64,000 bases of DNA from Candidatus Anstonellales archaeon (GTDB lineage Archaea > Micrarchaeota > Micrarchaeia > Anstonellales > J096): NCBI GenBank assembly GCA_038896535.1, contig JAWACY010000001.1:160001-224000 (forward strand), given 5' to 3'. This document shows, in pieces, positions 5,847 to 54,947 of the stretch. A model generated the notes under the pieces. It did no database searches. It was not told where the DNA came from and was given only the letters and a program-made list of their open reading frames with translations. Position 1 is the stretch's first letter. Each line of letters begins with the position of its first letter. Position numbers and translations under genes: made by a program.

Positions 5847-6812
5847 ATGGATTTAATAGCAGAAATTAAAGAACAAGTTGAAAAAAACATCAAGGATTAC
5901 ATAGAAAAATTTGAGACGAGGAAAGACATAATAGATGTTATTTATGAATATATATCAAGAGATGCAAAGAGGATAAGGCCCGTAATAATGATCTTGAGTG
6001 CCAAGGCAATTGATAAGCAAAGGTTAAAAATATTTGAAAAAACTGCAATAGCTATTGAGCTTTTTCATAATTTTACACTAATACATGATGATATAGAGGA
6101 TGGCTCATATTATAGAAGAGGTAAGCCGACATTACATGTTTTATATGGTGAGCCACTAGCAATAAATTTTGGAGATGCCTTATTTAATGTTGTTTGGCAT
6201 TCTATTATAGAATCAGGATTAACAAAAAATGAAATGCTTTTAATAAATAAAACATTCCAGGAAGTTGTTGAAGGCCAGCATATAGAGATAAGTGCAGTAC
6301 ATGAAGAAAGGTTTGATCTGGCTTATGAGGATTATTATGAGATAGCAAGCAAAAAAACAGGAGCTCTTATTGCTTTATGCATAGCTTTACCATTTTATAA
6401 AAAAAGCAAAAAAACGTTTAAAAAGGTTTATAAAAGCGTTAAAGAGCTTGGAATAGCATTCCAGATTTTGGATGATGTTCTGAATCTAACAGGAGATTTT
6501 GAGAAATATAAGAAAAAAATAGGTGATGACATAACAGAAGGCAAAAGAACGCTTATGGTTATATACACAATGAAAAACTCAAAAGATAAAGATGAATTAA
6601 AAGCAATATTGTCAAGCCATACAAAAGATGAAGAAAAAATAAAGAGGGCAATACAAATTATAAAAGAAAGCGGGGCAATAGAATTTGCAAAGAATAAGGC
6701 AAAAGAACTTGTTGATAAAAACCTGCCTATCTTAAAGCAAGCTTTTCCTGATTGCGAAGAAAAAGAAGCCCTGATGTCAATAGTTAACATGTTCATAAAT
6801 AGAGAAAAATAA
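5847..6812 (+). CDS. idsA: Polyprenyl (geranylgeranyl) diphosphate synthase
   Basis: 'KRIRP', FARM 'HNFTLIHDDIEDGSYYRRGKPT', SARM 'FQILDDVL', 'GDDITEGKRT'. Confidence 0.9.
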   Translation: MDLIAEIKEQVEKNIKDYIEKFETRKDIIDVIYEYISRDAKRIRPVIMILSAKAIDKQRLKIFEKTAIAIELFHNFTLIHDDIEDGSYYRRGKPTLHVLYGEPLAINFGDALFNVVWHSIIESGLTKNEMLLINKTFQEVVEGQHIEISAVHEERFDLAYEDYYEIASKKTGALIALCIALPFYKKSKKTFKKVYKSVKELGIAFQILDDVLNLTGDFEKYKKKIGDDITEGKRTLMVIYTMKNSKDKDELKAILSSHTKDEEKIKRAIQIIKESGAIEFAKNKAKELVDKNLPILKQAFPDCEEKEALMSIVNMFINREK

Positions 6813-6818
6813 CTGTAA

Positions 6819-6988
6819 GTAAGAAGGCAAATTAACTTATACACATGCCTTCTTACAATCATCCAACCCCTATTAAGCCCTGTAGTAAGAAGGCGCTTAC
6901 CCTTATACACACGCCTTCTTACAATCATCCAACCCCTATTATACGCTTTGGGAAGAAGACACTAACCCTGATAAACTTGCTTTCTTAA
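6819..6988 (+). repeat. Array A of 38-bp palindromic REP-like units (3 units, 66-bp period)
   Basis: GTAAGAAGGC-N18-GCCTTCTTAC at 6819-6856 and 6885-6922, degenerate copy at 6951-6988; 28-bp linkers starting AATCATCCAACCCCTATTA. Confidence 0.9.
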
Positions 6989-19768: not shown

Positions 19769-20175
19769 CCAAGAAGGCGTGTTTATAAGCCAATTTGCCT
19801 TCTTCAACAAAGCTTATAATAGAGGTTGGAAGATTGTAAGAAGGCGCATATATAAGGGCATTGCCTTCTTACCACAGGGAATAATAATAGGGGTTGGATG
19901 TTTGTAAGAAGGCACGTATAATAGGGTTAGTGCCTTCTTACTACATGGAATAATAATAGGGGTTGGATGTTTGTAAGAAGGCACGTATAATAGGGTTAGT
20001 GCCTTCTTACCTGGAAGATTGTAAGAAGGCGTGTTTAATAGGGTAAGCGCCTTCTTACCACAGGGAATAATAATAGGGGCTGGATGTTTGTAAGAAGGCA
20101 CGTATAATAGGGTTAGTGCCTTCTTACCTGGAAGATTGTAAGAAGGCGTGTTTAATAGGGTTAGTGCCTTCTTAC
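19769..20175 (-). repeat. Array B of 38-bp palindromic REP-like units (7 units) directly 3' of tRNA-Leu(CAA)
   Basis: Units at 20138-20175, 20090-20127, 20021-20058, 19973-20010, 19904-19941, 19836-19872 (37 bp) and degenerate 19769-19806; linkers of 10 or about 31 bp. Confidence 0.95.
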
Positions 20176-20177
20176 TA

Positions 20178-20287
20178 TGCAGGGGGTGGGATTTGAACCC
20201 ACGAACCCATATGGGACCGGATAACTCACTTAGTTATATAATTAGGCCTTGAGTCCGGCGCCGTTGACCAGGCTGGGCGACCCCTGC
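20178..20287 (-). tRNA. tRNA-Leu(CAA) with a 25-nt intron at position 37/38 (intron 20223-20247)
   Basis: Acceptor GCAGGGG/CCCCTGC, anticodon stem CCGGA/TCCGG, CT-CAA-G, long variable arm, GGTTCAAATC T-loop; BHB-type junction with central helix CTCA/TGAG and 3-nt bulges AGG and TTA. Confidence 0.95.
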
Positions 20288-20325: not shown

Positions 20326-23300
20326 TTAATTTTGTTTCTCTTGTTCTTCTTTTTCTATATCTTCATAACTTCTAATGATCTTTTTAGGTTTTTCTCCTCT
20401 TTTTATGAATTTCTTTATCTGATCTCTATAAAGATATAGAGCAGAACCAAAAGCAACAGCAGCAAAAGCAATATATGGCAGCCAATTTATATTTTGATTA
20501 ATTTTTGGTTTTGATGAATAAACGTAATCCTTCATTTGCTTTGCTGCAGATAATACAGACATGTAATCTCCATTTTCAAATGCCCTTTTTGCCTTTTCTA
20601 AGCTATTTTTATAAAATTCATAATTTATATTACTATTGGCCAAAAGTTGCTCTGCTTCGCTTAATTCTTTTTCAGCTATAGCAGCAATATTACCTATTGT
20701 TTCATTTATGTTTTCATTCAGCATTTTTAAATCATTCATTGCATTTTGTTTTTGTCTTGGTGTTTTTAGCTTTTCAAAGGCATTCAATTTTTCTTTATAA
20801 TAAGAATATGAAAAAGGCAGGTAAGAAGTTAATTTAAGCTCTTTTGCTTTCTTTTCTATAGCCCCATAATAATCAACGAGCTTTTGGGTATTTTTATAAA
20901 TCTCATCAAAGTCTGATGTGTTTATGCTTGCATTCTTTATTTTAGCATTTATTTCATCAAGTTTCTTAGCCGCATTTGATAAATCTTCTAAATTGTATGA
21001 TATTTTGCTTTTTCTATGCAATGATTCAAATTCAGAAAAATCACTGTCTAATGAATCTATATTCATTGAATTGTTGTAATAATCTTTTTGTGCATTTGTA
21101 AACTTTGTCCAAAGCAATTTAAGTTCATCTATTAAAAATGTTTTCTTTGCACTTTCAATTTTATCTGGATCTTTTATATCATTTATGCTGTTATTAAAAG
21201 CAATAAGATCATCTTTTATTGAGCTGTTTACAGATAATGCCCTATCTAATTGTGCATAAAATTCAAGTGTTTTATTAACCAATTTTACGTTATCTTCCTG
21301 CTCTTTTTCTTTTTTTGTTATTGTTTCGTTCAGATTAAGCGCTTTTATGATTCCTTCATTATAAAACCCAGACCTGTTAATTGCTTTTATTTCATCTAAT
21401 GCCTCTTTATCCTTTCCTGTCAGGTTTTTCTTTTCCAATTCTGCTATTATGTTGTTCAAATAGGAAGATGCATTTTGTATTAAATAAGAAACTTCGAGCC
21501 TGACATTTTCATTCTTCTTTAAATTCTCAAGTGTTATTATGTTATTTTTTGCCTTTATTTGTTGCATATTCATATCAGTAATTGTAGCATTGTTCTCAAC
21601 TTGTATCTCAAGCTTATCTATATTTTCTAAAGCATTTATATCTAAGCTATATTTACATAAGCTTCCTTGCTGAATATTAACGCAAGATTTTGCTTCCTTA
21701 TTTATTCTTACTGGCTTAATGTCATTTATTATTGATAAATTATACCTACCCTTCCTCATATCAATGACTTGTTTTTTACCGGCATAAAAAGAGCCTATAT
21801 AAATATTGCATTCGCAACCTATATCAAGCAGCATGTCAGCTGATATATCAACACTCATGTTCGTTATTTCCTTGCCTTCTTCACCTTTTGAGTATATATA
21901 AGTTATTTTATTAAGAGATATGGCAAACACATCAAGTTTACTTATCTTCCCTGATAGAGTTTCAAAGCTCTCTATGTATGGAATGATCCAACTTATGTTC
22001 TTGCCATTAGTTGTTATATGCCCTCTGTCTAATGAATAATCAGAACTGTATAAATCTATAGATAAAGGCAGTTGTTTTTCTACATTCTCAAATTTATATT
22101 GATATGGGTTTGATAAGAAGAAATGTGCTTCTAGCAATAATTGCTCATCTACTTTCCCCCTTGGTTTTGAGACATAAAAATTTAAAGGCACTGAATTAAA
22201 TAATGTTTTAGCATCCTTTGTTATTCTAGCTATGCTTGACTTGTAAAAATTTTCTAACTCATTTAAATTTCCGAGCCCCTTTTCATAGTTAATTATGCCG
22301 TTATAAAAAATATCTCCCTCAATTGCCTTCTTTTCAAGCGCGATTTCTGAAAATTGATATGGAAATGCTCTTAATAAAGAGTCAAGCTCATTCTTAAGTT
22401 GTTGAATAGAAGAAAATCTTTGTTTTACATTAAGCATAAGGTTTTGCTTGAGTTCATTAAGCTCGTTATATTTATTGAAATACGAGTCTTCGCTATTATG
22501 TATATTAGATAGCATACTTTCATAGCTAGTTGTTTCTATTCCATCTTCCTTTGCCTTTCTTATTAAATCAAGCATTGCATAATAAAGCCTTTCGTAATCA
22601 TCCTTTTTTTCTGGCTCTTTGGCTTGAAGGAGAACTGCTTTATTCAAAATACTAACATATAATGCATATTTATCACCAAGTGCTTGTTTTGTATCTGCTT
22701 GATAAATTATATTTCTTAATTCCTTTGTCTCATATCCTTGTCTATTTAATTCGTTAATTTTTTCATTTGCTCTTGCCCTGACTTCATCAACAGTTTGTTT
22801 GGCAATTAGCATAATGTCAGGAATATTACTATATTTATCAGCTTGCTTTGTTATAAGGTAAGCGTTCAACAAGTAATTTTCTGGTTTGCTATTCATAAAA
22901 TAATAAACATTACTCAAATCAGAAGATAATTGTTGTTTTATTAATTTTATGTCTTCAAGCAGCAGGTTTACATTTTTTGTATTTTCCACATTACCAGTTA
23001 TGAATACTGCATCTATCAAATAAAGTTTTTCTTGCTCTGCCCTGCTTATTATTGCAGATATTTCTTCATTCTTGTTTTGCATAAAAAATATTTTTTCATT
23101 TATTGTACTCTTTGCCTTTTCTTGTGCTTTTGAGGTGTTAAATATTAATGAATCTGCCCTATCAGAAAAACTTTTCACATTAGAGGAGATATAGAAAATA
23201 TTCTCTGGCCTTGGCGTATCTGCATATTTTAAGTCAGTGATATTACTTTTTATGAAATACAGCTCTTTCCCATTACTGCTCAATGCTAATATTTCCTCTT

Positions 23301-24210
23301 TTAGTGCAATGCATTCATTTAAACCATAAAAAGTATAATTTGTATTGCACATGCCTGCAAATGATGCATTCTCATATGCAGATATTAGCTCGAGCCTTTT
23401 TTGTTCTGCTTTATCAATATCTGATAGCAAAGCATCATATAGATAAGACCACATTTCATAGTAATAATTTCCATAATCCTTGCATGCCTGTGATGCTTCA
23501 TTCAATGTATCTGCAGTTAAAAGTGTTGCCCCTGCAATAGTAATTGGAGGAGAAAGATAAAGTAATGATAAACCTAAATTAATTAATGACCCAGAATCCC
23601 CATTATTTACATAGCCAGCATTCCCAGTTTTTGATAAGCTGTAATCAACAGAAGTTCTTGTAATTTCATTTCCTTCTTCATCTGTTGTGGTGTATGTATG
23701 CTCATCTCTATTTATTCTATATCCAAAAGATGCAGTCAATATATCATTGTATCCAAATAAATAACTAAGCCCTGACTCACCCAATGATAATATTACATTA
23801 GAAAATGCAGATATTATACTATCAATGAAATTTATGTTCCCATATTTGTCAAATTTATAAACTGCAGTGCATTTCTCATATGCATTATAAGCAAGCCTTG
23901 CTTTTTCCCTAGCATTATATAAATTATAATAATTTTGTGTTTCTGGTATATCCATATTTATTATTTTATTTAAGCTCTGCCCTGTATATGTTGGATTTAC
24001 TGTTTTTTCATTATCAAACAATATGTTATATGCCCAAGAATCATCAAATGGCTGTGGAGAATAAAATATATCAATCTGTTCTGGATAACTAATATCGGAA
24101 GCGAAAGAAGCGCAAAGAAATGTAAAAAATGATATCACTAATAATAAAAATTTATTACATGTGTAATAATCAATCTCCCTAATTATTTTCATTTTTATTA
24201 TTTCCCCCAC
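20326..24210 (-). CDS. Large (about 1290 aa) membrane-anchored surface protein
   Basis: N-terminal signal-like helix, long helical/coiled-coil regions with a beta-rich middle, many N-x-S/T sequons, C-terminal TM helix and basic tail. Confidence 0.8.
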   Translation of the reverse strand: MGEIIKMKIIREIDYYTCNKFLLLVISFFTFLCASFASDISYPEQIDIFYSPQPFDDSWAYNILFDNEKTVNPTYTGQSLNKIINMDIPETQNYYNLYNAREKARLAYNAYEKCTAVYKFDKYGNINFIDSIISAFSNVILSLGESGLSYLFGYNDILTASFGYRINRDEHTYTTTDEEGNEITRTSVDYSLSKTGNAGYVNNGDSGSLINLGLSLLYLSPPITIAGATLLTADTLNEASQACKDYGNYYYEMWSYLYDALLSDIDKAEQKRLELISAYENASFAGMCNTNYTFYGLNECIALKEEILALSSNGKELYFIKSNITDLKYADTPRPENIFYISSNVKSFSDRADSLIFNTSKAQEKAKSTINEKIFFMQNKNEEISAIISRAEQEKLYLIDAVFITGNVENTKNVNLLLEDIKLIKQQLSSDLSNVYYFMNSKPENYLLNAYLITKQADKYSNIPDIMLIAKQTVDEVRARANEKINELNRQGYETKELRNIIYQADTKQALGDKYALYVSILNKAVLLQAKEPEKKDDYERLYYAMLDLIRKAKEDGIETTSYESMLSNIHNSEDSYFNKYNELNELKQNLMLNVKQRFSSIQQLKNELDSLLRAFPYQFSEIALEKKAIEGDIFYNGIINYEKGLGNLNELENFYKSSIARITKDAKTLFNSVPLNFYVSKPRGKVDEQLLLEAHFFLSNPYQYKFENVEKQLPLSIDLYSSDYSLDRGHITTNGKNISWIIPYIESFETLSGKISKLDVFAISLNKITYIYSKGEEGKEITNMSVDISADMLLDIGCECNIYIGSFYAGKKQVIDMRKGRYNLSIINDIKPVRINKEAKSCVNIQQGSLCKYSLDINALENIDKLEIQVENNATITDMNMQQIKAKNNIITLENLKKNENVRLEVSYLIQNASSYLNNIIAELEKKNLTGKDKEALDEIKAINRSGFYNEGIIKALNLNETITKKEKEQEDNVKLVNKTLEFYAQLDRALSVNSSIKDDLIAFNNSINDIKDPDKIESAKKTFLIDELKLLWTKFTNAQKDYYNNSMNIDSLDSDFSEFESLHRKSKISYNLEDLSNAAKKLDEINAKIKNASINTSDFDEIYKNTQKLVDYYGAIEKKAKELKLTSYLPFSYSYYKEKLNAFEKLKTPRQKQNAMNDLKMLNENINETIGNIAAIAEKELSEAEQLLANSNINYEFYKNSLEKAKRAFENGDYMSVLSAAKQMKDYVYSSKPKINQNINWLPYIAFAAVAFGSALYLYRDQIKKFIKRGEKPKKIIRSYEDIEKEEQEKQN

Positions 24211-38998: not shown

Positions 38999-39505
38999 AT
39001 GGCAATAAAAAGCAGAGGCATTCCATCAAAAGAGGCTTTCTGGCTGCCAGCATTTTATAGCAATGATATAAGGCAGTTTCAAGATGAAAACGAGAATTTG
39101 ACAAGGAGCATATGGAAGTTAGATGAAATATTGAATTTTATATTCCCAAGAAAATATCAAGAAACTTATTATAATGTTGCTTTAGCATTTATGAATTATC
39201 TTTTCTCTTTTTACGGCCATGTTGAATCAAAGCAGATAGCAGAATTTGTTAAGAACAATAAAATATCAAAAGCAACATTCTACAACAGGGTTTTACCAAG
39301 GTTAAAAAGGCTTGGGCTTATAAGAATAAGGAGAGAAACAGAATTAGGAGCAAATAAAAAGTATAGACGCATGAGGATAGAGATAAGCAAGACATTTGGC
39401 AATTACTTGTTAAAAATTGCGAATAGCTGGCTGGCTCATGTTGATGATATAAAAGAGCAAAGGCAAATGAATGCAAAAAAAGAACAAGCTGATCAGGGCC
39501 TGTAG
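38999..39505 (+). CDS. Winged-helix DNA-binding protein
   Basis: 'ISKATFYNRVLPRLKRLGLIRIRR' recognition helix and wing; ATG at 38999 follows the upstream stop. Confidence 0.65.
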   Translation: MAIKSRGIPSKEAFWLPAFYSNDIRQFQDENENLTRSIWKLDEILNFIFPRKYQETYYNVALAFMNYLFSFYGHVESKQIAEFVKNNKISKATFYNRVLPRLKRLGLIRIRRETELGANKKYRRMRIEISKTFGNYLLKIANSWLAHVDDIKEQRQMNAKKEQADQGL

Positions 39506-39568
39506 TCGAGGGGCTAAGACGCCTCCTTCACACGGAGGAGATCCCAGGTTCAAATCCTGGCAGGCCCA
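39496..39568 (+). tRNA. tRNA-Val(CAC)
   Basis: Acceptor GGGCCTG/CAGGCCC, anticodon arm CCTCC-TT-CAC-AC-GGAGG, T-arm CCAGG-TTCAAAT-CCTGG. Confidence 0.95.
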
Positions 39569-45090: not shown

Positions 45091-47292
45091 ATGGTAAGAA
45101 AAGAAGCAGTTGTAGAAGATGTAGTAAAAATAATGGAGAACCTTGATTTTGTTAGAAATATGGCAATAGTTGCGCATGTAGACCATGGAAAAACAACTTT
45201 AAGTGATAGCCTTGTTGCTAGGTCAGGATTAATAAGCAAAGAACTTGCAGGGCAACAAAGAGTGCTTGATTATGACATACAAGAGCAGAAGAGGGGAATA
45301 ACAATAAAAGCAGCAAATATAAGCTTAGGCTTTACTTATGAAGGCAAGGATTATTTAATAAACTTAATAGATACACCAGGCCATGTTGATTTTGGCGGGC
45401 ATGTTACAAGAGCTATGCGTGCTGTTGATGGTGTTGTTCTTGTTGTAGATGCAGTTGAAGGCATTATGCCTCAAACAGAAACTGTTTTAAGACAGGCATT
45501 AAAAGAAAGAGCGAAGCCAGTGCTTTTCATAAATAAAGTTGATAGGCTTATAAATGAGCTTAAGCTCTCACAGCAGCAGATAATGGAGAAGCTTATTAAG
45601 ATCATTGCTGGAGTTAATAAAATAATAGAAGCAAACGCACCTGAACAATTTAAAAAAGATTGGCAAGTATCTGTTGAAAATGGCAAAGTTGCAATAGGAT
45701 CAGCATTCAATAAATGGGCACTCAGCATTAATAGTATGAAGAAAACAGGCATAAATTTCTCAAAAGTTTATGAGCTGGTATCAAATAATAAAATGAGTGA
45801 ATTGAGCGAACTTTCTCCTGTTGATGAAGTTGTGCTTGAAATGGCAGTTAAAAACTTGCCAAATCCAAAGCAAGCACAGGCATATAGAATTCCTGTTCTA
45901 TGGCACGGAAACATTGAAAGCGATGAAGGAAAGGCAATGCTTTTATGTAATGCAAATGCTCCAACAATAGGTGTTGTTTTTGGAGTAGTCTATGACGAAC
46001 ATGCTGGCGAGGTAGCTGTTGTAAGGCTTTTTTCTGGAACAATAAGGAAAGGAGATAATTTATATGTTGCATCAAAACTTGCTTATAATAGAGTGCAGCA
46101 GGTTGCTATTTATATGGGCCCAGATAGGATACAAGCTGAAAAAATAACCGCTGGCAATATAGGGGCTGTTGTTGGGCTTAAGGACGTTTATGTTGGAGAA
46201 ACAATAAGTTCAATGCCTATAGAGCCATTTGAACAAATAAAGCATTATTCAGAACCAGTAGTTACAAAAAGCATAGAAGCGGCAAATCCGAAAGATTTAG
46301 GAAAATTAATAGAAGTTTTAAGAGGACTTGCAAAAGAAGACCCAACATTAAGGGTAGAGCTAAATCAAGAGACAGGAGAACACTTAATAAGCGGTATGGG
46401 AGAGTTACACTTAGAAATTATTGAATATAAAATAAGAGAAGAAAAAGGCGTTGCAATAAAAACAAGCCCGCCAATTGTTGTTTATAGAGAAACACTTGCC
46501 TCTAAAGAAGGGCCTGTAATAGAAGGAAAAAGTCCAAACAAGCATAACAAGCTTTATATAAAAGTTGAAAAACTTAATGATAATATTGTTAAGGCACTTG
46601 ATAATGCAGAAATCCCTGAAGGAAGAATAAAAGGAAAAGTTCCACAACAGCTTGTTGAAAAGCTTGTCTCTCTTGGCATGGACAGAGATGAAGCAAAAGG
46701 GCTTTGGGATGTTTATAATAAAAACTTTCTTATTGATGCAACAAAAGGAGTGCAATACTTAAATGAAGTGCAAGAACTTATAGTACAAGGTTTTGAAGAA
46801 GCAATGTCCAAAGGGCCTTTATCACAAGAAAAGGTTGCTGGCATAAAAGTTGTGCTTGTTGATGCAACCTTGCATGAAGATAATGTACACAGAGGGCCTG
46901 CACAAATATTACCAGCAGTAAAAAGGCCTATATATGCCTCAATGTTAAAGGCAAATGTACAATTGCTTGAACCAAAACAGAAAATATTAGTACAAGTCCC
47001 ACAAGATTATGCTAGTGCCGTGCTTAATTTGATGAATGGGAAAAGGGCAAAACTATTATCTCTTGAACAGGAAGGAGATATGGCAACAATAAATGTTATT
47101 GTTCCAGTTGCAGAAACATTTGGCTTGAGCAATGAATTAAGAGGCGTTAGTCAAGGAAGAGCAATTTGGTATAGTGAATATTATGGGTATGAGCCATTAC
47201 CAAGAGAATTACAGGATAAAGTTGTTTATTCAATCAGAGATAGAAAAGGCCTGCCAAAAGAACCGCCAAAAGCAGAAGAATTTATGGAATGA
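45091..47292 (+). CDS. fusA: Elongation factor aEF-2
   Basis: 'AHVDHGKTT', 'RGITI', 'DTPGH', 'NKVD', 'GMGELHLE', diphthamide loop 'HEDNVHRGPAQ'. Confidence 0.98.
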   Translation: MVRKEAVVEDVVKIMENLDFVRNMAIVAHVDHGKTTLSDSLVARSGLISKELAGQQRVLDYDIQEQKRGITIKAANISLGFTYEGKDYLINLIDTPGHVDFGGHVTRAMRAVDGVVLVVDAVEGIMPQTETVLRQALKERAKPVLFINKVDRLINELKLSQQQIMEKLIKIIAGVNKIIEANAPEQFKKDWQVSVENGKVAIGSAFNKWALSINSMKKTGINFSKVYELVSNNKMSELSELSPVDEVVLEMAVKNLPNPKQAQAYRIPVLWHGNIESDEGKAMLLCNANAPTIGVVFGVVYDEHAGEVAVVRLFSGTIRKGDNLYVASKLAYNRVQQVAIYMGPDRIQAEKITAGNIGAVVGLKDVYVGETISSMPIEPFEQIKHYSEPVVTKSIEAANPKDLGKLIEVLRGLAKEDPTLRVELNQETGEHLISGMGELHLEIIEYKIREEKGVAIKTSPPIVVYRETLASKEGPVIEGKSPNKHNKLYIKVEKLNDNIVKALDNAEIPEGRIKGKVPQQLVEKLVSLGMDRDEAKGLWDVYNKNFLIDATKGVQYLNEVQELIVQGFEEAMSKGPLSQEKVAGIKVVLVDATLHEDNVHRGPAQILPAVKRPIYASMLKANVQLLEPKQKILVQVPQDYASAVLNLMNGKRAKLLSLEQEGDMATINVIVPVAETFGLSNELRGVSQGRAIWYSEYYGYEPLPRELQDKVVYSIRDRKGLPKEPPKAEEFME

Positions 47293-47343: not shown

Positions 47344-47428
47344 GCAGGGGTCGCCAAGCCTGGTCAACGGCGCAGGACTTAAGATCCTGTCCCATATGGG
47401 TTCGTGGGTTCAAATCCCACCCCCTGCA
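47344..47428 (+). tRNA. tRNA-Leu(TAA), no intron
   Basis: Acceptor GCAGGGG/CCCCTGC, anticodon arm CAGGA-CT-TAA-GA-TCCTG, long variable arm. Confidence 0.96.
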
Positions 47429-47512
47429 CATATAAGCGAGTTAGGAGTTAGCCGATATAAGCAAAACCTTCGAGCGAAGCGAGAAGAGGATTTGAAGCCA
47501 AAGGGTTCAAAT

Positions 47513-47694
47513 GTAAAAAGGCAAATTAACTTATACACACGCCTTCTTACAATCATCCCGCCCCCATTATTCCCTGTGGTAAGAAGGCAAATTAACTTAT
47601 ACACACGCCTTCTTACAATCATCCCGGTAAGAAGGCAAATTAACTTATATATGCGCCTTCTTACAATCTTCCAACCTCTATTATAAGCTTTGTT
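47513..47694 (+). repeat. Array C of 38-bp palindromic REP-like units (3 units + shared tail)
   Basis: Units at 47513-47550, 47579-47616 and 47627-47664; linkers of 28 and 10 bp; tail AATCTTCCAACCTCTATTATAAGCTTTGTT identical to array B. Confidence 0.93.
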
Positions 47695-54711: not shown

Positions 54712-54784
54712 GCCTCAGTAGCTCAGCTGGAAGAGCGACCGCCTTGTAAGCGGTAGGTCGGGGGTTCAAATCCCTCCTGGGGCT
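54712..54784 (+). tRNA. tRNA-Thr(TGT)
   Basis: Acceptor GCCTCAG/CTGGGGC, anticodon arm ACCGC-CT-TGT-AA-GCGGT, T-loop TTCAAAT. Confidence 0.96.
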
Positions 54785-54788
54785 CTGG

Positions 54789-54892
54789 GTAAGAAGGCAA
54801 ATTAACTTATACACACGCCTTCTTACAAACATCCCGCCCCTATTATTCCCTGTGGTAAGAAGGCACTAACCCTATTACACACGCCTTCTTAC
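54789..54892 (+). repeat. Array D of 38-bp palindromic REP-like units (2 units) 4 nt after tRNA-Thr
   Basis: Units at 54789-54826 and 54855-54892; linker AAACATCCCGCCCCTATTATTCCCTGTG. Confidence 0.93.
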
Positions 54893-54947
54893 AAATATCT
54901 GATTCATGTTATTGGATTCTTAAGTGAGGCAAAATCTTTATGGGCAG

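Follow-up and report, generated by a model that had tools for sequence, protein, structure and literature searches.

Tandem hairpin repeats at the 3′ boundaries of tRNA genes in an Anstonellales archaeon

How do unrelated hairpin repeats come to occupy the exact ends of tRNA genes? This interesting question is raised by a 64,000-nt stretch of DNA from Candidatus Anstonellales archaeon (GCA_038896535.1, JAWACY010000001.1, positions 160,001-224,000, forward strand), which we refer to as the window, and within it by the gene for tRNA-Thr(TGT) (54712..54784, + strand; called by ARAGORN, by Rfam RF00005 at 69.1 bits and by Infernal). Its discriminator at 54784 is followed on the same strand by a 4-nt junction without a T run, CTGG (54785..54788), and then by array D (54789..54892), in which two 38-nt hairpins (54789-54826 and 54855-54892) are separated by a 28-nt long linker and which folds as two hairpins. 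Array D closes with a degenerate terminal linker, AAATATCTGATTCATGTTATTGG (54893..54915, + strand), which likewise terminates the tRNA-Lys(CTT) array in another part of the genome. Arrays of this kind are a real and highly non-random feature of the genome. The reading we favor, to which we give about an even chance, is that they represent a lineage-specific, protein-less palindromic repeat linked to tRNA 3′ boundaries, which grows in place by tandem duplication and comes along as a tRNA trailer.

Position of the arrays in the genome

The genome (751,790 bp in five contigs, 32% GC, 91% complete) contains 43 tRNA genes, an identical set being returned by ARAGORN run with introns and by whole-genome Infernal, and the former also places archaeal-type introns in tRNA genes. 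After setting aside one badly degenerate copy out of 69 parsed, 68 hairpins remain in this 752-kb genome, all of them intergenic, and these form 16 arrays plus one fragment at a contig start. Thirteen of the 16 arrays follow a tRNA gene, and every one of these lies in the orientation of its tRNA. The gap between the discriminator and the first hairpin is 2 nt in eight cases, 4 nt in two, and -1, 3 and 84 nt in one case each. Random intergenic placement would put 0.44 arrays behind tRNA genes (binomial P = 3e-18 for at least 13 of 16), and a conservative model that allows gene 3′ ends only still yields P = 2e-14. A previous sequence-only reading of the window had staked its proposal on such a tRNA and orientation bias holding genome-wide, and the bias is indeed there. 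The view that tRNA 3′ ends are a preferred site, which that reading offered as an alternative, is also its better-supported half, as it is backed both by these 13 arrays and by other repeat families that take the same position in three relatives.

The carriers are clustered by amino acid family (permutation p = 1e-5): arrays follow 5 of 5 tRNA-Leu genes, 3 of 4 Arg, 2 of 3 Thr, 2 of 2 Ile, 1 of 2 Lys and none of the 27 others. The isoacceptors concerned are all five for Leu, Arg TCG, CCT and TCT, Thr CGT and TGT, Ile GAT and an intron-bearing 'TAT', and Lys CTT. Moreover, the T arm reads GGG-TTCAAAT-CCC in all 13 carriers vs 11 of 30 non-carriers, Thr(GGT) and Ala being examples of the latter. 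The element, or a factor acting in trans, may recognize features of the tRNA gene end that isoacceptors have in common. The similarity among the arrays themselves does not track tRNA identity, as for none of the five Leu arrays is the nearest relative another Leu array, which is an argument against isoacceptor genes having simply been co-converted. A test for regional subfamilies gave only a weak relation of array similarity to genomic distance (Mantel r = 0.24, p = 0.066, not significant).

Three arrays lie away from tRNA genes: one in sense orientation 3′ of idsA, one in a divergent promoter region (C1:320115-320265, on contig C1) and one in antisense between two genes (C2:197507-197892). 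Beside the latter two, an Rfam scan returned no RNA family at E values up to 1. As a control we compared the 5′ flanks of the tRNA genes, only 3 of 43 of which resemble another flank; these three are accounted for by arrays upstream of a neighboring tRNA and by the adjacent, divergent genes for Lys(CTT) and Gln(TTG), where the upstream flank runs into the Lys array. A convergent next gene, which the sequence-only reading had noted for the arrays behind tRNAs, is found for all three in the window. Genome-wide it is found for 8 of 12 scorable array tRNAs vs 15 of 30 array-less tRNAs, i.e. without enrichment, after two automatic neighbor calls had been corrected by hand since spurious open reading frames (ORFs) sit inside arrays.

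The arrays also break assemblies at tRNA genes. The piece with which contig C4 begins is a continuation of the array that ends contig C2; both belong to the tRNA-Leu(CAG) array and have identical units. C2 and C4 are therefore probably neighbors, with an array longer in reality than in the assembly. For the locus itself, a 9.9-kb stretch is matched, among the runs listed, only in DNA runs from hot-spring metagenomes of two studies and in no RNA run; contigs from four runs end or begin at array edges, and none bridges an array. As the joints seen there ('goes back 66', 'skips 77') may stem from other arrays of the same family matched at 90% likeness, we draw no conclusion on copy-number variation.

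Anatomy and growth of the units

Each unit consists of a 38-nt hairpin, in which the arms GTAAGAAGGC and GCCTTCTTAC enclose a loop of 17-18 nt, and of a linker of either ~10 or ~28 nt. The stem has 10 bp, and its outer pair is G-C in 50, A-T in 8, G-T in 4 and something else in 6 of the 68 units. As the A-T pair is restricted to three arrays within 31-64 kb of contig C1, it probably goes back to a single compensatory event. In six units two additional pairs inside the loop (GC/GC or AC/GT) lengthen the stem to 12 bp. Loops have 18 nt (57 units) or 17 nt (11 units), and their 45 distinct sequences belong to three classes that start with RCKHACCC (n = 40), AAATT (n = 18) or AATRCCC (n = 10). The description of these units as 10-12-bp hairpins with variable 18-nt loops therefore stands for the stems, whereas the loops are 17-18 nt long and, being of three classes, not freely variable.

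Internal linkers are either short (8-14 nt, n = 12) or long (25-33 nt, n = 40), the short form matching, as judged by eye, the initial 10 nt of the long form, and array ends carry a degenerate long linker. Loop and linker polarity show that all units of an array point the same way, so that the linker, short or long, is all that alternates. The arrays, regularly built from perfect 10-bp inverted repeats at a constant distance with two linker types in turn, would be suitable as DNA sites for a dimeric protein involved in chromosome organization, replication-transcription conflict or topology, as proposed for BIMEs with gyrase and IHF. A symmetric site, however, needs neither a fixed orientation nor nucleotide-precise abutment to a tRNA nor a strand-asymmetric composition, and no candidate protein was found; we consider this explanation highly unlikely.

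Arrays show signs of local expansion, with tandem duplications of 48- and 66-nt units and dimers of 114-117 nt within arrays. The Thr(CGT) array contains pairs of identical units, the Leu(CAG) array a run of them, array B has a 117-nt period, and arrays reach 7-8 units. We propose that once seeded the arrays would grow by local duplication of this kind. The decay of the units is polar: pairing is perfect in the first, tRNA-proximal unit of 15 of 16 arrays, and in the last unit of 5 of the 14 arrays that have at least two units and whose end is known (Fisher p = 0.0014). As a plain edge effect of tandem repeats would erode both ends, either new units are added next to the tRNA or selection acts on the first hairpin.

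The two strands of the arrays differ in composition. G is scarce in the loops and linkers of the tRNA-sense strand (184 G and 706 C in 2274 nt), and the stems of this strand have 8-9 G-U wobbles vs 2 A-C mismatches. Array RNA folds far above shuffled sequences (z = -9.7 for array B), with pairing between arms across linkers as a further option in these folds. The canonical hairpin has a mean probability of 0.49 in sense vs 0.38 in antisense at 37 °C (p = 0.05), a difference that is gone at 65 °C. A coding role was considered and rejected, for although one frame is open across some units, the class-A loops hold stops when judged by eye.

Within the window the exact hairpin pattern has 12 matches, which lie in four arrays, vs none in 100 shuffles. 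Arrays follow three of the window's four tRNA genes, starting 2, 4 and 84 nt past the tRNA with the same sense polarity, just as the sequence-only reading had it. The 2-nt case is array B (19769..20175, - strand), with seven hairpins in tRNA sense, of which the distal one is degenerate, behind tRNA-Leu(CAA) (20178..20287, - strand). This tRNA gene, which has a 25-nt intron, is recovered by ARAGORN with introns and by whole-genome Infernal and was overlooked by default ARAGORN and by the gathering-score Rfam scan of the window. On its 5′ side lies a 1294-aa ORF (20326-24210, - strand) without a Pfam match at E ≤1e-5. The 84-nt case is tRNA-Leu(TAA) (47344..47428, + strand; ARAGORN, Rfam and Infernal), which lies directly 3′ of the EF-2 gene (45091..47292, + strand) and is parted by its spacer (47429..47512, + strand) from array C (47513..47694, + strand). 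Array C has three hairpins, the first with one A-C mismatch, joined by one long and one short linker and closed by a terminal linker. Array A (6819..6988, + strand), one of the only three without a preceding tRNA, also holds three hairpins, the last one degenerate with 6 of 10 Watson-Crick pairs; it begins in sense 6 nt after the stop of the idsA-like polyprenyl synthetase gene (5847..6812, + strand; Pfam PF00348, E 2.9e-62), again as previously noted. The fourth tRNA gene, tRNA-Val(CAC) (39496..39568, + strand), is array-less and serves as an internal control; its first T5 run starts 16 nt downstream.

Repeats in relatives and the search for a mobility system

Is the repeat shared with related archaea? 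Allowing up to 2 mismatches, the hairpin pattern is absent from all 40 relatives searched, three of them of the same genus, vs 65 matches in its own genome, and the flanks of the relatives' tRNA-Leu and tRNA-Thr genes hold no arrays of this type. What the relatives do have is other hairpin repeats in the same place, as found by inspecting all detected tRNA 3′ flanks of two congeners (G001 and G003) and of a member of another genus (G004). Directly 3′ of 11 of 30 tRNAs in G003 lies a module of ~150 nt that starts with a CCGC-T-run/A-run-GCGG hairpin, four further tRNAs have it beyond an insert of ~100 nt, and 17 of 30 flanks resemble another flank. This module has inverted hairpin ends, stands in either orientation behind tRNAs (loci L146-L175) and has 23 matches, nearly all beside tRNAs, with none in the genome studied here or in G001, G002 and G005. 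Many G003 tRNAs are at contig ends, which suggests that repeats have broken the assembly.

In G001, AT-rich arrays of a AAACTTCTTTT-AGA-AAAAGAAGTTT hairpin start 1-2 nt past all three Ala and two Pro tRNAs, and these 5 of 43 tRNAs make up five of the six loci of the family (L336, L339, L344, L354, L366); G002 has one match to it near a tRNA. The hexamer CTTCTT/AAGAAG is common to the arms in G001 and to those described here, from which common descent may or may not follow. A GC-rich hairpin repeat, finally, lies 10-70 nt behind 5 of 33 tRNAs in G004 (two Lys, two Arg and one called SeC). Across relatives the position is thus shared, and the repeat sequence and the tRNA subset are not. That four sister genomes have different hairpin repeats at different tRNA subsets, clustered by isoacceptor family, points to a general process linking hairpin repeats and tRNA ends, for which our full-text literature searches returned no published description.

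Public collections hold little that resembles the family. In public genome contigs the pattern turned up at 103 loci, always as a lone chance hairpin and never as an array; viral contigs gave no match to the pattern, and metagenome contigs none to the hairpin-plus-linker pattern. With a looser two-unit pattern, metagenome contigs gave at least 121 loci, among which we tabulated 25 and examined five in more detail. These hits belong to other families, most of them to one with extended GC-rich stems (GC 36-47%). Three loci (L219, L230, L265) with the same 10-nt arms have other 17-nt loops, alternating orientation and 14-nt linkers, and were judged unrelated. The DNA around them is low in GC, contains hardly any ORFs of 70 aa or more and has no tRNA within 1.5 kb; it is probably from an unrelated genome.

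With regard to enzymes that could move the repeat, profile searches for six families (Y1 transposase/RAYT, TnpB, tyrosine integrase, reverse transcriptase, rve and DDE_Tnp_1) matched nothing in this 91%-complete genome. For the Y1/RAYT profile PF01797 this holds at E up to 0.01, with a control search matching 6 of 14 reference genomes, and for the tyrosine integrase it refers to PF00589. With regard to miniature inverted-repeat transposable elements, the two 10-nt arms form inverted repeats and the G003 module has inverted hairpin ends; next to the hairpin arrays we saw no flanking duplication, and none of the six transposase, integrase or reverse transcriptase families was found.

The genome does have an ordinary CRISPR locus, outside the window at ~37.5-45 kb of contig C2, with Cas1 (134 bits), a 92-aa ORF beside it as putative Cas2, further genes on the same strand and an array in which a 37-nt repeat occurs seven times, with spacers of 36-39 nt. 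We rejected the idea that the hairpin arrays are CRISPR arrays, as their variable parts are 17-18 nt long and recur in three classes and as the Cas1/Cas2 genes lie beside that separate array with its unrelated 37-nt repeat. An origin from casposons was likewise rejected because Cas1 belongs to the CRISPR locus. EF-2 and tRNA genes are known casposon landing sites, and here the EF-2 gene adjoins tRNA-Leu(TAA), yet the sole Cas1 of the genome is that of the CRISPR locus.

Small traces of insertion may nevertheless be present next to tRNA genes. The spacer at 47429-47512 terminates in an anti-T-arm sequence followed by a partial T-arm copy, and inserts of 70-100 nt 3′ of the relatives' tRNAs finish by repeating the tRNA 3′ end (L006, L012, L014, L018; Thr, Ser and Leu in G003, Arg in G004). 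To judge by sequence, the spacer and these inserts look like footprints of tiny tRNA-targeting insertions. Such tRNA 3′ copies, the standing of tRNA 3′ ends as classic integration sites and the Cas1-Cas2 pair in the genome would all fit arrays that are scars of integrative elements, i.e. stacked att sites, or a degenerate CRISPR-like array. The arrays themselves, however, contain no tRNA 3′ copy and no tRNA 3′ direct repeat stands at their ends; a tyrosine integrase is missing from the profile matches, the CRISPR repeat is unrelated and the would-be spacers are of three recurring classes. This explanation is largely refuted and we regard it as barely credible.

Transcription, function and comparison with known systems

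Are the arrays transcribed with their tRNAs? T runs are the usual terminators of archaeal tRNA genes (PMC3491384). A T5 run starting within 30 nt of the tRNA end is found for none of the 13 carriers vs 12 of 30 array-less tRNAs (p = 0.008), the first T5 of the carriers being at 62 nt or later, and this extends to the whole genome the previous remark that no oligo-T parts tRNA and array. As no T-run terminator stands between the two, we infer that RNA polymerase would read into the array. The genome also encodes a full-length RNase Z (contig C3:39534-40397; 266 bits, profile positions 1-299 of 302). It is plausible from the sequence that the array is transcribed as a 3′ trailer, which RNase Z would be expected to cut off. 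In such a scheme the array would be mostly selfish or neutral DNA that perhaps also serves as a terminator or insulator. Should the arrays be transcribed, long structured trailers would be part of a third of the tRNA precursors, with a bearing on tRNA termination and processing in ultra-small archaea.

The T5 difference also speaks for the main rival of the reading we favor, namely that the arrays are selected cis-elements of tRNA transcription units that act as terminator, insulator or signal for 3′-end protection or processing in place of the T run. The tRNA-proximal hairpin is the best conserved, some hairpin repeat lies behind a subset of tRNAs in all four family genomes examined in detail, and the first hairpin behind tRNAs in G001 and G003 has a T-run/A-run stem that resembles a two-way terminator. 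The hairpin of the present genome, however, has no run of four or more T. Arrays serve only 13 of 43 tRNAs, and the carrier sets differ among species. A single hairpin would suffice, yet arrays run to 7-8 units and decay toward the distal end. Of the three arrays that do not follow a tRNA, two are antisense to or upstream of genes, and a convergent neighbor is no commoner than for array-less tRNAs. We therefore judge selected cis-elements to be rather unlikely, if less so than the other rivals.

The inference at the center of the sequence-only reading was another one, that the arrays are genes for small hairpin RNAs that act in trans and are released by RNase Z from tRNA-array precursors. Their position is flush with the RNase Z site, 12 first hairpins lying -1 to 4 nt past the discriminator, and the enzyme is present. 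There is a precedent in Nanoarchaeum equitans tRNA-Val with C/D box sRNA8 (PMC3491384), and the G-poor sense strand with its excess of G-U wobbles would suit an RNA. When the window was scanned with Rfam at gathering score, however, no C/D or other known RNA motif was found in the arrays, and neither C/D nor H/ACA boxes appear in the Rfam scans. When loops and long linkers were searched on both strands against their own genome, only 8 matches outside the arrays were found, each with 2 mismatches, and no antisense targets. A search of the loops against viruses and host had been suggested, and while the viral contigs have no pattern match, these eight weak matches are what the host has to offer. 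Three conserved loop classes without antisense targets weaken the case for a diverse class of small RNAs, the family is specific to one species, and the sense strand folds better by a marginal amount at 37 °C and not at all at 65 °C. With position as its positive support, a small-RNA class appears improbable.

The reading we favor, a palindromic repeat that spreads at tRNA ends, has to be held against several observations. Its near-invariant stems could reflect purifying selection for a function and not recent spread, the intact tRNA-proximal unit also fits a functional first hairpin, and the clustering by isoacceptor family could come from function or recombination instead of targeting. Not all arrays are at tRNAs, two of the three exceptions being altogether outside a 3′ trailer position, and none of the six enzyme families was found. 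Neither a target-site duplication nor an empty site is demonstrable, since the congeners are alike at the DNA level in the tRNA only, without synteny. Co-transcription and release by RNase Z, lastly, we infer from gene arrangement. Going further, one could imagine that in these DPANN archaea a gene-less element homes to the exact tRNA 3′ boundary by means of isoacceptor features and without a known transposase, that its arrays grow in a polar fashion, that the trailer is released by RNase Z as a hairpin RNA, and that unrelated families arose or invaded repeatedly in sister species; for this fuller scheme as a whole we have only tentative regard and would sooner doubt it than not.

How do the arrays compare with known systems? 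Full-text searches of the literature yielded no description of hairpin repeats flush with DPANN tRNA genes. The closest in form are bacterial REP/BIME elements (REPIN-RAYT), which are likewise species-specific extragenic palindromes of ~38 nt. They, too, are clustered, with two linker types in alternation, are often found at 3′ ends and between converging genes, and evolve inside their lineage. As a short extragenic palindrome with many copies in one species, the present repeat is REP-like. It differs in being archaeal and in having a single orientation within each array, where BIMEs and REPINs alternate, and it has no RAYT/Y1 match and no GTAG/CGTC end tag. To our knowledge, nucleotide-precise abutment to tRNA discriminators is known for no REP family. 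The available text of a REP survey (PMC3733652) has no occurrence of GTAA and makes no mention of an association with tRNA-gene 3′ ends.

RtT repeats (Rfam RF00391) resemble the arrays in being tandem repeats directly behind a tRNA gene. They lie behind E. coli tyrT, are co-transcribed with it and processed from the tRNA precursor, and their units include a copy of the tRNA 3′ end. They are confined to one tRNA operon, compared with a third of the tRNA genes here, and none of our units or array tails has a tRNA 3′-end copy, nor does the window have an RtT match in Rfam. Plants have dicistronic tRNA-snoRNA genes from which the snoRNA is released by RNase Z. In N. equitans, itself a DPANN archaeon, tRNA-Val and the C/D box sRNA8 share one precursor (PMC3491384). 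There, too, a non-tRNA element comes right after the tRNA, so that an RNase Z cut would make its 5′ end; the arrays differ as multi-copy tandem repeats at 13 tRNAs without C/D boxes or an Rfam family.

Elements that target tRNA genes (tyrosine-integrase, Tn7-like, CAST) share with the arrays a fixed orientation and a short distance from the tRNA end, and archaeal Tn7-like elements predicted to use tRNA genes are described in a preprint (10.1101/2025.07.27.667033). The units described here differ in being 48-66 nt long, gene-less and tandem, and no rve/TnsB-type enzyme, integrase or other transposase was found by our profiles. Finally, hairpin-forming repeats have invaded sponge mitochondrial genomes repeatedly, according to the accessible part of PMC2800124. 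Although these are organellar and that part notes no precision at tRNA ends, they resemble the arrays in being small hairpins that independently invade the intergenic DNA of compact genomes.

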